A stretch of DNA of 64,000 nt, taken from contig CAVVMJ010000006.1 of assembly GCA_963749445.1 (NCBI GenBank), forward strand, positions 10,979 to 74,978, given 5' to 3'. The notes beneath the pieces are model-generated. The model was not told the DNA's origin, searched no databases, and worked only from the letters and a program-made list of their open reading frames with translations. A program made the translations under genes and the position numbers. This stretch comes from an uncultured bacterium (GTDB taxonomy: Bacteria > Patescibacteriota > Doudnabacteria > UBA920). Positions 46,745 to 53,637 of the stretch are shown piece after piece; positions within the stretch are counted from its first letter, which is position 1; each line of letters opens with the position of its first letter.

Positions 46745-46884
46745 CCACGGAGTTTCTCCTCCTTTCAAAGGAGGAGTACCCGCCACAGGCGGGGGAGGTG
46801 GTGAAATAAAACGCAGGCCAAACTCCAACCACCCCGTCGGCTATCGCCGCCACCCCTCCTCAGCAAGGAGGGAAGCTCCGCAGT
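46745..46884. repeat. R4 composite multi-hairpin element, intergenic copy A (module order 2-1)
   Basis: ..GAGTTTCTCCTCCTTTCAAAGGAGGAG..GGGGGAGGTGGTG...CTCCAACCACCCCGTCGGCTATCGCCGCCACCCCTCCTCAGCAAGGAGGGAAGCTCCGCAG. Confidence 0.65.
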
Positions 46885-46904
46885 AAGTCCTTGATGAAAT
46901 TCCT

Positions 46905-47315
46905 ATGCCCAAACTTACCTCAAACCAATACGCCCAAGCGCTGTTTGAAGCAGTTACGGAAACCCATCCCAAAGACCACGACGCGGTTTTAGATAATTTT
47001 GTGCGGATTTTGGCGCAAAACGGGGATTTGGGAAAATACGATGAAATAGACGCCGAATTCCGTAAATTAAAATTATCATCCGAAGGTATAAAAGAAGCCA
47101 AAGTGACCGTTGCAAGGGAAGCCGAGTTGAACCATCAGATCATCCAAGAATTAAACGCTGTAGTGCAGGCCACCGGCCTGCCCGCCAAGCTGGAAATCAA
47201 GCAAAAAATTGACCAATCCATAATCGGCGGCGTGGTAGTACGAGTGGACGACACGCTGATTGACGCGAGCGTAAGAACGCAGTTGAATAATTTAAATAGA
47301 GAATTAAAACTGTAG
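46905..47315 (+). CDS. atpH: F0F1 ATP synthase subunit delta (short, 136 aa)
   Basis: Operon position and the C-terminal pattern IIGGVVVRVDDTLIDASVRTQL. Confidence 0.6.
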   Translation: MPKLTSNQYAQALFEAVTETHPKDHDAVLDNFVRILAQNGDLGKYDEIDAEFRKLKLSSEGIKEAKVTVAREAELNHQIIQELNAVVQATGLPAKLEIKQKIDQSIIGGVVVRVDDTLIDASVRTQLNNLNRELKL

Positions 47316-47370
47316 CGCGCCGATTTATCGGCTGGATTTATTACTGCAGCCCATAAATGGGTACGCTACA
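47311..47370. repeat. R2 palindromic element, rearranged intergenic copy
   Basis: TGTAGCGCGCCGATTTATCGGC..GCAGCCCATAAATGGGTACGCTACA. Confidence 0.6.
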
Positions 47371-47397
47371 AAAACATAGATTCCCGCCCTTGCGGGA

Positions 47398-47796
47398 ATG
47401 ACAAGAAAGGAAAATATGTTTGATAATAGAAATGAAAGAGGGCTGTCCCCGGTCGATAAAATTTCGTTTGAGGCCAAAAACGGCGTTCTAAGTGGAGTAG
47501 CAAAATTTTATACAGAATGGAGAAGCCAGAGATATGGCAATCCTGGAGCAAACATACCGGAAAATCCTGATATGCCAAATTGGAAAAAGTATGCAGATAC
47601 CCAAAGAAATAAAATTGTAAATTCCATTTTAAATGAGCCAGAAACACAAAAATACACCGCAGATCCTAATTTTGATGTTTCGGATAATCAAAAGAGAGTT
47701 CGGCAGGTTATAGAAGCCATAGACTTTGAAATACAAACAGGTGTTGTTCAAAAATACGATAACCCCGAAGCTGCAAGGACAGCGAAAGGAAAATAA
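47398..47796 (+). CDS. Small AT-rich hypothetical ORF inserted between atpH and atpA
   Basis: 132-aa ORF with lower GC than the flanking atp genes and no recognisable domain. Confidence 0.3.
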   Translation: MTRKENMFDNRNERGLSPVDKISFEAKNGVLSGVAKFYTEWRSQRYGNPGANIPENPDMPNWKKYADTQRNKIVNSILNEPETQKYTADPNFDVSDNQKRVRQVIEAIDFEIQTGVVQKYDNPEAARTAKGK

Positions 47797-47802
47797 TATT
47801 TT

Positions 47803-51170: not shown

Positions 51171-52712
51171 ATGAACAAAGGAACAATATCTCAAGTTATC
51201 GGGCCGGTGGTGGACGTGCATTTTCCCGCTGAAGGCGGGTCCGCCTCTGGCGGAAAGGATTCTAATAATTTGCCGGGGATTTATAATGCGCTGGAGGTGG
51301 AAATTACATCGGAAGACTCCAACCACCCCGCCGCCTCCGGCGGCACCCCTCCTTTTGAAGGAGGGGAAGCTCCGCAGGTCAACCGCGGAGCCTCTCACCC
51401 TGCCAAGGGGGAGTACCCTGCGAAGCAGGGGGAAGGGGTTGGAGTTCATAAATTAACCCTCGAAGTTCAGCAACAGCTTCCGGGCAATATCGTGCGTACT
51501 GTAGCCATGTCCAGCACCGATGGATTAAAGCGCGGGACAGAGGTAACGGACACAGGCGCGGGAATATCGGTTCCGGTGGGAAAAATCACGCTGGGGCGCA
51601 TTTTTAACGTCTTGGGGCAGGCTGTAGACGGCCAACCGACCCCGACATCCGACAAAAAGTACACAATCCACCGTCCGCCGCCCAAGTTTACCGACCAAAA
51701 CGTCAAAACCGAAATTCTGGAAACCGGCATTAAAGTTATAGACTTAATCTGCCCGATATTAAAAGGCGGAAAAGTCGGATTATTCGGCGGAGCCGGCGTA
51801 GGCAAGACAGTTATTATCCAGGAATTAATTAATAACATTGCCAAGGCGCACGGCGGCGTTTCGGTTTTTGCCGGCGTGGGTGAGCGCACCCGCGAAGGAA
51901 ACGACCTCTATCGCGAAATGAAAGAGGCCAACGTTTTGCCAAAACTGGCCATGGTCTTTGGGCAGATGAACGAGCCGCCCGGAGCCCGCGCGCGCGTGGC
52001 CTTGTCCGGTTTGTGTATGGCCGAATATTTCCGCGACGAAGAGCACCAGGACGTGCTGATGTTTATAGACAACATTTTCCGTTTTACGCAGGCAGGTTCA
52101 GAAGTTTCAGCTTTGCTCGGCCGAATACCATCAGCTGTCGGATATCAACCTACGCTTGCTACGGAAATGGGCGAACTCCAAGAAAGAATTACATCCACCA
52201 AAAACGGCTCCATTACTTCCGTCCAGGCGGTTTATGTACCGGCGGACGACTTAACAGACCCGGCTCCGGCCACGACTTTCGCTCACTTGGACTCTACTGT
52301 AGTTTTGAGCCGCGCATTAACGGAACTCGGCATTTATCCGGCGGTTGATCCCTCGGATTCCACATCCACGATTTTGGATCCGCTGATCGTAGGCGAAGAA
52401 CATTACAACGTAGCCCGCGGCGTGCAAAAAACTTTGCAGCGTTACAAAGATTTGCAGGACATTATCGCCATTTTGGGTATGGAGGAACTTCCCGAAGAAG
52501 ACAAAATTACCGTTACCCGCGCGCGCAAAATTCAGCGCTTCCTTTCCCAGCCTTTCGCCGTAGCCGAAGTCTTTACCGGCCGCAAAGGCGAATTCGTCAA
52601 GCTATCCGACACCGTCAAAGGCTTCAAAGCCATCTTAGCCGGCGAATACGACGGTGTGCAAGAGGGCGAATTTTATATGAAAGGCGGAATTGAACAAGTT
52701 AAAAAAAGCTGA
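51171..52712 (+). CDS. atpD: F0F1 ATP synthase subunit beta. It carries an in-frame, roughly 45-aa R4 element insertion (51317-51444) and a small GGCGGGTCCGCC palindrome insertion (about 51232-51262) in the N-terminal beta-barrel domain.
   Basis: [12 protein letters not shown]-loop and the DELSEED-region equivalent. The insertion reads [49 protein letters not shown]. Confidence 0.9.
51317..51444. repeat. R4 composite element, copy C, in frame inside atpD (module order 1-2)
   Basis: CTCCAACCACCCCGCCGCCTCCGGCGGCACCCCTCCTTTTGAAGGAGGGGAAGCTCCGCAGG..CCGCGGAGCCTCTCACCCTGCCAAGGGGGAGTACCCTGCGAAGCAGGGGGAAGGGGTTGGAG. Confidence 0.7.
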
Positions 52713-52724
52713 AATCTAAACCTT

Positions 52725-53024
52725 ATGGTAAGTAGACAAGAAATGATAAATTTTGGTCAAGACTCCATAGGGAGGGAAAACCCACCCTTGCCTTATGATA
52801 TGGAAAAATTAGAGACTAGATTTAATATGCTTAGCAAGTCACCCCGAAAATTAGAAATAGCCGGTTTATGGGCGCAAAATCTGACAGCGCCTAAAATTGC
52901 TCAGATCACCGGTTTAACTAAGCATATGGTCGAATCACACATACACGAGATTTACGCCCATTTTTTAATTCACTCAAAGCGAGAGTTACAGGATGTCTGG
53001 AAACTCCTGCACCAAAATTCTTAG
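52725..53024 (+). CDS. Small LuxR/GerE-type HTH protein inserted between atpD and atpC
   Basis: LSKSPRKLEIAGLWAQNLTAPKIAQITGLTKHMVESHIHEIYAHF matches LuxR-family HTH spacing. Confidence 0.4.
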   Translation: MVSRQEMINFGQDSIGRENPPLPYDMEKLETRFNMLSKSPRKLEIAGLWAQNLTAPKIAQITGLTKHMVESHIHEIYAHFLIHSKRELQDVWKLLHQNS

Positions 53025-53034
53025 AATTTCGGTT

Positions 53035-53490
53035 ATGCCCAAACTCCATTTTCAACTCGTCACTCCGGAACGCACGGTTCTACACGAAGAACTGGATTCT
53101 TTGTCGTGCCCTACGACCTTGGGACAAATTACCATTTTGCCCGGACACATCCCTTTGGTAGCGACTTTAACGGCAGGGGAGTTGATTGCCAGAACGGGAG
53201 GGAAAGAGGAAAATATAGCGGTTACAGGCGGTTTTATTGAGGTTCGGGCCAATAATGAGGTAGTCGCGCTGGCTGACGCGGCCGAGCATTCTTACGAAAT
53301 TGACGTCCATAAAACCGAAGAGGCGGTCAAGCGCGCGCAAACCGCGATGAAAGAAACAAAAATGTCTTCCGAAGAATACGCCCGCGTCGCGGCCAGCCTA
53401 AACCAAAGCCTGACCAAACTGAATATCGCGCGCAAGCATTCCCACCGCCTTGGCGAGCCGATAACGGGCGAAGGAGTCTTCAAGGAATAA
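53035..53490 (+). CDS. atpC: F0F1 ATP synthase subunit epsilon. The start is assigned to the ATG at 53035; the listed ORF begins upstream, inside the preceding gene.
   Basis: LHFQLVTPERTVLHEELDSLSCPTTLGQITILPGHIPLVATL pattern of epsilon's N-terminal beta sandwich. Confidence 0.7.
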   Translation: MPKLHFQLVTPERTVLHEELDSLSCPTTLGQITILPGHIPLVATLTAGELIARTGGKEENIAVTGGFIEVRANNEVVALADAAEHSYEIDVHKTEEAVKRAQTAMKETKMSSEEYARVAASLNQSLTKLNIARKHSHRLGEPITGEGVFKE

Positions 53491-53497
53491 ACAAAAC

Positions 53498-53637
53498 GCG
53501 GAGCCTCTCCTCCTTCTCAAGGAGGAGTACCGCCCGCAGGGCGGGGAGGTGGTTGGAGTTGCTGACGGTAATACTCCAACCCTTCCGTCTCGCTGCGCGA
53601 TCCACCTTCCCTTTTTAAGGGAAGGAAGCTCCGCGGA
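53498..53637. repeat. R4 composite element, intergenic copy D (module order 2-1)
   Basis: CGCGGAGCCTCTCCTCCTTCTCAAGGAGGAGTACCGCCCGCAGGGCGGGGAGGTGGTTGGAG...CTCCAACCCTTCCGTCTCGCTGCGCGATCCACCTTCCCTTTTTAAGGGAAGGAAGCTCCGCGG. Confidence 0.65.

Follow-up and report, generated by a model that had tools for sequence, protein, structure and literature searches.

R4, a dispersed family of structured DNA repeats with a predicted triplex fold in and beyond the ATP synthase operon of Candidatus Doudnabacteria

Candidatus Doudnabacteria (Patescibacteria/CPR) is a lineage of uncultured bacteria with small genomes. The 64-kb stretch of DNA analysed here (the window) includes an ATP synthase (atp) operon, in which the original prediction placed four copies of a composite multi-hairpin element, R4, at 46745-46884, 50367-50502, 51317-51444 and 53498-53637. 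Both coordinates and motifs were verified in the sequence, and within the window the copies are concentrated in the atp operon (c1 to c4, Table 1). The composites c1 and c4 each start 2 nt downstream of a stop codon, that of atpF and atpC respectively, and the left unit of c1 is degenerate (head ACGGAGT, tail GGTGAAAT). The fifth, divergent composite gave weak nhmmer matches only (E = 0.0056 and 0.056) and represents a sister subfamily with the ends GCAGAGC and GGTTGCAG. A copy of a similar subfamily occupies the atpF-atpH spacer of one relative (L021), and c4 is missing from the equivalent spacer of another (L060).

Table 1. Features of the R4 composites, the interrupted atpG gene and one example unit (window coordinates).
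Feature	Position	Strand	Remarks
Fifth, divergent R4 composite, order 2-1	43999..44133	.	Between upstream gene and tRNA-Thr (44143)
Composite c1, order 2-1	46741..46887	.	Unit A type 1 (+), then unit B type 2 (-)
atpG (F1 gamma subunit), split in two frames	49718..50765	+	Pfam ATP-synt
Composite c2, order 1-2	50363..50504	.	B type 2 (-), then A type 3 (+); within atpG
Composite c3, order 1-2	51314..51447	.	B type 2 (-), A type 3 (+); within atpD
Composite c4, order 2-1	53493..53641	.	A type 1 (+), B type 4 (-)
c4 left unit, stem 1 pyrimidine arm	53507..53515	+	CTCCTCCTT
c4 left unit, stem 1 purine arm	53519..53527	+	AAGGAGGAG; Watson-Crick with 53507-53515
c4 left unit, stem 2 bridging mini-hairpin	53530..53544	+	CCGCCC-GCA-GGGCGG, G-N-A triloop
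c4 left unit, tail	53546..53554	+	GAGGTGGTT; mirror of purine arm, then conserved GGAG; proposed reverse-Hoogsteen third strand

Alignment of the eight halves yielded one R4 unit of ~65 nt. In its 5' part the head AACYGCGGAGC is followed by pyrimidine and purine arms of 9 nt each, separated by a loop of 3-5 nt; its 3' part holds a GC-rich mini-hairpin, which in most cases has a G-N-A triloop, then a G-rich tail of 9 nt and finally GGAG. The tail mirrors the unit's purine arm, with G matched to G and A to T or A in the example unit. Arms occur as CTCCTCCTT, CCCCTCCT, CTCCCCCT and CCTTCCCTT, between the conserved flanks GCGGAGC and GGTTGGAG. Units of types 1 and 3 form class A and those of types 2 and 4 class B, and most composites join one A and one B inverted relative to each other, the tails pointing outward in order 1-2 and the heads in order 2-1. 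The two modules first described are this single unit in opposite orientations, module 1 matching a sister form of module 2 once reverse-complemented.

A profile made from the eight half-elements recovered exactly those eight in the window (E = 1e-15 to 1e-19), and the strict pattern GCGGAGCYTY..RAGGRRRRGTR..GGTTGGAG matched seven times, compared with no match in 100 shuffles. Further copies were found at 14 loci in 6 genome bins (12 loci labelled Doudnabacteria) and at 45 metagenome loci, amounting to 131 units overall. R4 is therefore neither low-complexity sequence nor restricted to this locus.

Across these about 60 further loci from related genomes the contrast in composite order seen in the window became a strong trend: order 1-2 composites were genic in 32/32 cases, whereas 16 of the 22 order 2-1 composites were intergenic and 6 genic (Fisher p = 3.5e-9). 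Order 2-1 composites mostly occupy short spacers and often begin 1-9 nt past a stop codon. Long ORFs contained 43 of 77 copies (38/54 composites and 5/23 single units), and the structure was retained in the intergenic copies, which comprise about 16 composites as well as 18 single units. Of the genic order 1-2 composites, 25/30 read B then A along the host gene's sense strand, and copies following a stop codon had A first in 8/10. Type 4 units occurred in 2-1 composites and as single units, never in 1-2 composites. Judged by this distribution the orders resemble distinct sublineages, and the module swap does not require the excision and reinsertion that had been suggested.

Of 101 units, 91 have a stem 1 that pairs without mismatch over 8-9 bp, and compensatory pair changes occur in this stem. 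The second linker, of 16-19 nt, contains a hairpin of 4-7 bp (stem 2), which reaches at least 4 bp in 90/101 units and is built from 41 different arm sequences; its loop is a GNA triloop in 60 of 96 units and a G..A loop in 74. Scoring tails against purine arms by the mirror rule gave 8.76/9, compared with 5.4 for the non-mirror (direct) reading and 7.42 ± 0.09 with tails shuffled among units, a test that overstates independence because the five unit types are subfamilies related by descent. What carries the case is that the mirror rule holds for each type separately: all five distinct types score 9/9. In mixed-type composites the tail follows its own purine arm (8.63) rather than that of its partner (6.57). 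A generic class II triplex scan of the 64 kb detected the R4 elements, including both halves of the divergent fifth composite, and one other site only, with 0 matches in 20 shuffles. As the purine arms of R4 are asymmetric, the covariation reveals the mirror (antiparallel) register. The three-way match in five unit types is consistent with a purine-motif DNA triplex like that of the BoxC elements of E. coli.

We propose that each unit, when its G-rich strand is single-stranded, would fold as a class II purine-motif triplex, in the order pyrimidine arm, purine arm and third strand, with the mini-hairpin as a bridge. The predicted triplex is a structure of DNA, not RNA, and the three segments might be kept matched by the fold or by repair that it directs. 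Single-stranded DNA folds of c1, c2 and c4 had z-scores of -5.6, -6.8 and -7.2. We consider it reasonably probable (about 0.6) that R4 comprises non-autonomous, structured DNA repeats of Candidatus Doudnabacteria with this predicted triplex fold.

REP, ERIC and Correia elements act as RNA terminators, stabilisers or regulatory structures, and R4 units might likewise be structured RNA, serving as terminators or 3'-end stabilisers between genes and, within genes, regulating the mRNA or causing pausing on it. The compensatory changes in stems 1 and 2, the position of order 2-1 composites just past stop codons, the TTTT that follows about five of these and the fact that composites fold far better than shuffles all favour such a role. 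However, Watson-Crick RNA pairing offers no explanation for the mirror repeat of tail and purine arm, and RNA does not form purine-motif triplexes (Holder et al. 2015, PMC4666352). R4 has GNA triloops rather than GNRA or UUCG tetraloops, a T-run is absent at most copies, and an Rfam search with R4 returned no family with a plausible model even at E = 1, self-splicing introns and small ribozymes included. BoxC units, according to the literature, have neither promoter nor terminator activity. An RNA function as the explanation of R4 thus appears improbable.

It is the dispersal of R4, together with its presence or absence between relatives, that suggests mobility. The flanks of 30 copies in order 1-2, of 21 in order 2-1 and of the single units showed no target-site duplication, and a search for an R4-mobilising gene and a clean empty site found neither. 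The Y1 transposase gene at 15150, put forward earlier as a possible partner, does not fit this role: the only Y1_Tnp ORF in the window (15150-16100) is flanked by GGGGTCAAGTCTATAT repeats, which differ from R4 units. Under a cut-and-paste MITE model, it would be the 1-2 composite that moves, with ACTCCAACCAC terminal inverted repeats and a DDE transposase encoded elsewhere in the genome. The 1-2 composites do have 11-12-nt terminal inverted repeats and a length of 117-177 nt, and are scattered over many genes. The lack of target-site duplications nevertheless makes a classical MITE unlikely; moreover, units also occur singly and in reverse order, no order 1-2 copy is intergenic, unlike the expectation for random insertion, and no parent IS was seen. 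We therefore give a MITE very little weight.

From the original assignment to a MITE- or BIME-like unit, the second half was retained, as R4 has two related unit classes in inverted pairs joined head-to-head or tail-to-tail. In REP/BIME/REPIN systems with RAYT transposases, too, two related structured unit types alternate in inverted pairs, with distinct linkers for the two kinds of junction. These systems also lack target-site duplications, probably reflecting single-stranded DNA biology. REPs, however, are simple extragenic hairpins of 20-40 nt with a GTAG-type 5' motif, whereas R4 is often genic, and a RAYT (Y1) gene is flanked by its own repeat, which was not the case for R4 in the window. 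R4 probably spreads via single-stranded DNA, either by replication-linked copying or through an enzyme acting in trans.

Apart from the copy in the window's atpG, all 31 genic order 1-2 copies were in frame and stop-free, which suggests that they are translated. One frame dominates (TPTTPS..GGEAPR..EYPAKRGEGVG), with other frames used in some hosts, and the inserts are rich in Pro, Gly, Ser and Thr and at least in some cases lie within variable protein loops. AtpG and AtpD were confirmed as hosts by homology; those recognized by eye from ORF translations include endonuclease IV, TatD, ArgRS, IleRS/ValS, UvrC, an ABC transporter and a glycosyltransferase. Relatives share orthologous copies in atpD and atpG, those of the atpD copy in L016 and L060 being 92-97% identical. 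In atpD, c3 is in frame and read through, and its encoded insert, given as 43 protein letters, falls in a length-variable loop between two strands of the N-terminal barrel. An AF2 model of the AtpD N-terminus was of low confidence throughout (mean pLDDT 44.5), and a surface-loop position of the insert is therefore weakly supported. Genic copies may survive only as in-frame, stop-free, hydrophilic versions in tolerant loops, and could be kept since imprecise deletion there would be harmful.

The recurrence of this peptide in unrelated host proteins, in one dominant frame, could mean that it is a selected protein module of which the DNA repeats are a by-product. This is hardly credible given that the intergenic copies keep the structure unchanged, that the mainly intergenic type 4 still follows the mirror rule, that some hosts use other frames, and that conservation tracks base pairing, not codons.

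Translated palindromes have a precedent in the Rickettsia palindromic elements (RPEs; Ogata et al. 2000, as reviewed in PMC10969869). Like R4, these are palindromes of ~100-150 bp that are in frame and stop-free in unrelated housekeeping genes and encode a recurring peptide; the RPE peptide is compatible with protein function, and intergenic copies exist as well (PMC10969869). R4 is found in a different phylum (Patescibacteria, not Rickettsiales) and is probably unrelated in sequence. Unlike RPEs, it is composed of two triplex-type half-units, and its orders are split by context. To our knowledge, triplex potential has not been reported for RPEs.

The closest structural counterparts of the predicted fold are the BoxC/PIT/TMECO elements, a group of intrastrand triplex repeats described from E. 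coli and further Proteobacteria (Hoyne et al. 2000; Holder et al. 2015, PMC4666352). R4 resembles BoxC/TMECO in its class II order (9-nt pyrimidine arm, loop, 9-nt purine arm, loop, 9-nt G-rich third strand), in being G/C-rich and highly repeated, and in the absence of a linked transposase. BoxC/TMECO units are found singly or as inverted pairs, always A plus B, as are most R4 composites. In contrast, R4 bears no similarity to the TMECO consensus CCCTCNCCC N3-6 GGGNGAGGG N3 GGGNGAGGG, has conserved flanks that TMECO lacks, and resides in a CPR bacterium; unlike the strictly intergenic TMECO, R4 composites are mostly genic and in frame. The second loop of R4 is a 15-nt hairpin within the linker, compared with 3 nt in TMECO and up to 6-10 nt in published searches. 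At 16-19 nt, this bridging loop is far longer than in characterised intrastrand triplexes.

Whether intrastrand DNA triplexes form and matter in bacteria is unsettled. BoxC/TMECO units form triplexes in vitro (Holder et al. 2015, PMC4666352) but in vivo footprinting detected no stable BoxC triplex. The BoxC arm is symmetric, so its mirror register cannot be read; R4 offers at least five asymmetric arm versions, which make the mirror tail readable as covariation, the type of evidence usual for RNA structures. Tentatively, and with the odds rather against it, the three-way covariation could be evolutionary evidence of an intramolecular DNA triplex that forms in the cell and propagates or maintains the family in essential genes. 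The triplex might serve as a recognition structure for an enzyme acting on single-stranded DNA or, alternatively, as a replication block driving templated copying. In that case each order would represent a sublineage with a fate of its own, one locked inside genes and the other retained at 3' ends. R4 extends selfish palindromes of the Rickettsia type, translated in essential proteins, to the CPR/Patescibacteria, and may explain part of the odd loop insertions in proteins of these bacteria. It also breaks or mis-joins metagenome assemblies (L034, L016) and can produce apparent frameshifts in core genes.

The atpG gene is such a case. Its upstream ORF (49718-50524, covering Pfam ATP-synt positions 2-195) stops at 50524, the frame being broken by c2, and the remainder continues in another frame (50502-50765, positions 202-285), which places the insert between positions 195 and 202. 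A functional break, with c2 either cut from the transcript as an intervening sequence or bypassed by programmed frameshifting, is scarcely conceivable: excising exactly 50367-50502 (136 nt) would restore the frame, and a +1 slip from UUU to UUU at the upstream ORF's end (TCT TTT TGA A) would reach the downstream one, but excision of the 128-nt atpD copy would disrupt atpD, no ribozyme or intron model matched, a slip would exchange the conserved DYLF motif for another sequence and has no Shine-Dalgarno-like stimulator nearby, and all other order 1-2 copies are in frame. Furthermore, four relatives (P0122, P0123, P0125 and P0126) have full-length, in-frame atpG homologs with the element at the equivalent site. 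The window copy is merely 2 nt shorter than theirs, with one missing base in the 5' arm of stem 2. This deficit is unlikely to be a designed feature and most likely stems from an error in assembly or sequencing, or from a mutation that arose very recently.

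The original prediction had placed four two-module copies of the repeat R4 in and around the ATP synthase (atp) genes, and both their positions and their motifs were verified in the sequence. The two modules are present as described, but module 1 proved to be a sister version of module 2 in reverse complement, and when aligned in a single orientation the eight halves represent one unit of ~65 nt. Each unit comprises, in order, a head (AACYGCGGAGC-YTY), stem 1, a linker (GT(A/G)), stem 2 and a tail (GGG.GGTTGGAG), and a composite is an inverted pair of units with its tails outward (order 1-2) or its heads outward (order 2-1). 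A profile built from the eight halves recovered precisely those eight in the 64-kb window (E = 1e-15 to 1e-19), with a fifth composite appearing as a weak profile match, and a strict pattern gave 7 matches in the window versus 0 in 100 shuffles. Chance similarity between GC-rich sequences was rejected as an explanation of the copies; the observation is confirmed as real. No Rfam family matched at either the gathering or a permissive threshold; the scans returned only tRNAs and chance microRNA-like matches.

Coordinates of R4 composites, atp features and other repeats in the window
Feature	Position	Strand	Remarks
R4 composite c1	46741-46887		after atpF; order 2-1
R4 composite c2	50363-50504		in atpG; order 1-2
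R4 composite c3	51314-51447		in atpD; order 1-2
R4 composite c4	53493-53641		after atpC; order 2-1
Fifth composite	43999-44133		divergent subfamily
atp operon	44700-53490	+	small unrelated ORFs interspersed among atp genes
Small non-atp ORFs in operon gaps	47398-47796, 49416-49715, 50769-51143, 52725-53024		three without Pfam match, one GerE/LuxR-type helix-turn-helix protein
atpG 5' ORF	49718-50524		268 aa; Pfam positions 2-195
atpG remainder			other frame; Pfam positions 202-285
End of truncated atpG ORF	50516-50526		TCT TTT TGA A
Short repeat, CTTAGCCC-type	50102-50133, 59427-59472		first copy in atpG, encoding STLSPNTLALSP
atpG segment APDEAIPSDDETASAALAVSD	about 49890-49960		residues ~60-85
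Mini-hairpin GGGTCCGCCTCTGGCGGA	51237-51254		inside atpD; encodes GGSASGG
86-nt repeat family, ending ..GCAAGCCGCAAAAAATATCCGGGATC	33045-33130, 44554-44639, 49289-49374		72-80% identity; two copies in the atp operon (upstream of atpB; after atpA)
AT-rich palindromes with TACTAAA-like words	46069-46176, 29412-29492		36-48-nt arms, 81-86% complementary; one directly upstream of atpF
IS200-like Y1 transposase ORF	15150-16100		Pfam Y1_Tnp, E = 1.3e-15
Flanks of the Y1 ORF	15092-16192		inverted repeats containing GGGGTCAAGTCTATAT
GGGGTCAAGTCTATAT after small toxin-antitoxin-like gene pairs	about 11890, 12919, 13807, 14716 (11860-14750)		four gene pairs
Lone class II triplex-pattern sequence	6396-6428	-	outside R4; TCTCCCTT, AAGGGAGA, AGAGGTTT; short loops, one tail mismatch

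Further copies are present beyond the locus and in related genomes: the strict pattern matched 45 metagenome loci and a further 14 loci in genome bins (6 bins, five labelled Doudnabacteria), with zero matches in viral contigs, plasmids and phages. Over this set the profile detected 131 units. Besides AtpG and AtpD, whose assignment is confirmed by homology, the host proteins (named by eye from ORF translations, not by family search) include endonuclease IV, a PEP-utilising enzyme, TatD, ArgRS, IleRS/ValRS, a zinc dehydrogenase, an FAD oxidase, an ATP-grasp enzyme, a glycosyltransferase, an ABC transporter and UvrC. The dominant reading frame of the genic copies encodes TPTTPS..GGEAPR..(RGASPPxKG|RSLSSFSKE)EYPAKRGEGVG. 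Searching 5.8 billion proteins with a profile of this peptide gave a single match, the E-value limit being too strict for so short and low-complexity a query.

The original prediction had also contrasted genic copies in order 1-2 with intergenic copies in order 2-1. The contrast held as a trend, with 32/32 order 1-2 composites lying inside genes and order 2-1 composites intergenic in 16 of 22 cases and genic in 6. Single units were non-genic in 18 cases versus 5 genic. The association of order with context is strong (Fisher p = 3.5e-9), although the effective sample is smaller as orthologous sites were counted more than once. A strict open-frame test was satisfied by 29 of the 32 order 1-2 composites; the other three are the frameshifted atpG copy and two atpD copies, whose site is too near the N-terminus for the test. 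Several intergenic copies, including both of those in the window, start 1-9 nt past a stop codon. Stop-codon content was ruled out as the cause of the split, since the usual frame remains open in the intergenic copy after atpC.

There are two classes of unit, A comprising types 1 and 3 (linker TA..G) and B comprising types 2 and 4 (linker TG..AC), and most composites pair an A with a B. When read in the host gene's sense direction, genic order 1-2 composites give B (reverse complement) and then A in 25/30 cases, A comes first in 8/10 copies after stop codons, and type 4 is absent from all order 1-2 composites. The two orders had been attributed to a module swap by excision and reinsertion or by recombination between half-elements; on this polarity and type distribution they look instead like separate sublineages sharing a common strand polarity. 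As a working idea, order 1-2 copies would be selfish elements trapped in genes, because imprecise deletion within a gene would be harmful, and order 2-1 copies would be kept at 3' ends.

Stem pairing was counted by script. Stem 1 is a perfect 8-9-bp helix in 91/101 units, and stem 2 reaches at least 4 bp in 90/101 units with 41 different arm sequences; 5 bp are reached in 66/101 real segments versus 3/101 shuffled ones. RNAalifold on a sequence-based alignment recovered stem 1 alone, because stem 2 is too variable to align. The loops of stem 2 are GNA triloops in 60/96 units and G..A loops in 74/96. The C-GNA-G motif is a very stable DNA mini-hairpin of the d(GCGAAGC) type, while RNA prefers GNRA or UUCG tetraloops. 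An RNA-only structure was rejected as an explanation of R4.

The 9-nt tail is a mirror image of the purine arm, in which G is matched by G and A by T or A (purine arm/tail: AAGGAGGAG/GAGGTGGTT, AAGGAGGGG/GGGGTGGTT, AAGGGGGAG/GAGGGGGTT, AAGGGAAGG/GGAAGGGTT and AAGGGGAGG/GGAGGGGTT). The mean mirror score was 8.76/9, compared with 7.42 +/- 0.09 when tails were shuffled among units and 5.4 for a direct (non-mirror) reading. Covariation imposed on the tail by the partner unit was ruled out, as in mixed-type composites tails scored 8.63 against their own purine arm and 6.57 against the partner's. Watson-Crick pairing between tail and pyrimidine arm was rejected, as it would yield just 5 bp with mismatches, compared with 9/9 under the mirror rule. 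Such mirror repeats are not produced by ordinary mutation, nor are they explained by Watson-Crick pairing. A generic scan of the 64 kb for a pyrimidine arm, a purine arm and a mirrored third strand returned the R4 elements and one other site, with 0 hits in 20 shuffles, and the mirror rule is approximately kept in the divergent subfamily (the fifth composite and one related locus, L021). Read from sequence, the mirror tails are the signature of a putative purine-motif triplex with its third strand antiparallel to the purine arm. What the sequences show directly is that R4 is dispersed and translated in frame, that its two orders split by context, that it has a strand polarity and that the three segments match one another; the triplex fold itself would form on single-stranded DNA and may matter for the maintenance or spread of R4.

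R4 units share their build and their habit of A/B pairing with the BoxC/PIT/TMECO repeats of E. coli and other Proteobacteria, class II intrastrand triplex motifs with 9-nt arms that occur singly or as inverted type A and type B pairs, are always intergenic, and form triplexes in vitro that were undetected in vivo (Holder et al. 2015, PMC4666352). RNA does not form purine-motif triplexes (PMC4666352). R4 differs from these repeats in sequence, conserved flanks, host and location inside genes, and its hairpin bridge of 16-19 nt exceeds the loops of at most 6-10 nt allowed in published searches. Its in-frame peptide behaviour matches that reported for Rickettsia palindromic elements (RPE; PMC10969869). 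R4 is a combination of BoxC-family and RPE-family traits, and none of this sort turned up when the literature on CPR bacteria was searched.

R4 is more interesting than a plain MITE. No target-site duplication was found at the copy ends, and the Y1 transposase, named in the prediction as one to check, is flanked by its own, different repeats; together with these it looks like a REP/RAYT-type system of its own with no relation to R4. In a dehydrogenase-like gene, a composite present in locus L022 is absent at the same site in L007. No clean empty site was recoverable from this pair and the insertion boundaries are undefined, because the loop itself has diverged.

The AtpD and AtpG homologs place the window within Patescibacteria, adjoining Candidatus Doudnabacteria. 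The atpD copy is translated in frame in an N-terminal barrel loop of variable length among homologs, giving an AtpD of 513 aa versus about 455-475 in homologs; confidence in the structure model of this N-terminus was too low for use. The atpG copy disrupts the reading frame. In four relatives (homologs P0122, P0123, P0125 and P0126; 78-81% identity to the window's AtpG after repair) this site is occupied by an element that stays in frame. Alignment with in-frame copies revealed two single bases missing from the window copy, one in the spacer and one in stem 2; the latter lies in the 5' arm, and its loss also spoils the hairpin. An error or a recent lesion is thus the likeliest cause of the frame break. 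A +1 tRNA-Phe slip on the five-T run at the end of the truncated ORF would lead into the downstream atpG frame; we regard this as a coincidence because the conserved DYLF motif would be replaced.

Three loci (L034, L016 and L060) represent the atp locus of one relative, with a nucleotide identity of about 87%. Its insertion in atpD and the second one in atpG are shared with the window; it has one additional in-frame composite in atpG and is without a composite after atpC. Orthologous units are mostly mutual closest relatives, consistent with vertical descent accompanied, in stem 2, by a degree of compensatory change or exchange. Contig L034 terminates within an R4 element (1528-1604), and in L016 (1-300) an unrelated ABC-ATPase gene is joined to the atpG 3' end via a half element. 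Both cases show that assemblies break or mis-join at R4 repeats, these being a cause of contig breaks and, probably, of chimeric joins when assembly is from short reads.

The matching operon gaps of L060 hold different small genes (Sigma70_r4-like, PDDEXK_3). The atpG loop carrying the CTTAGCCC-type repeat is occupied by an R4 composite in L034/L060, so that this loop takes different repeats in different lineages. The APDEAIPSDDETASAALAVSD segment of atpG is similar to DEAI(P/S)S.DKKIASDAL segments in AtpD/AtpG loops of other Patescibacteria (P0029, P0069, P0123, P0128) and may belong to a second in-frame coding repeat family. The GGSASGG peptide of the atpD mini-hairpin recurs at other positions of the AtpD homologs P0002, P0012, P0099 and P0069 and in unrelated host proteins of L009 and L012, and in L024 one R4 unit has the same hairpin as its stem 2.
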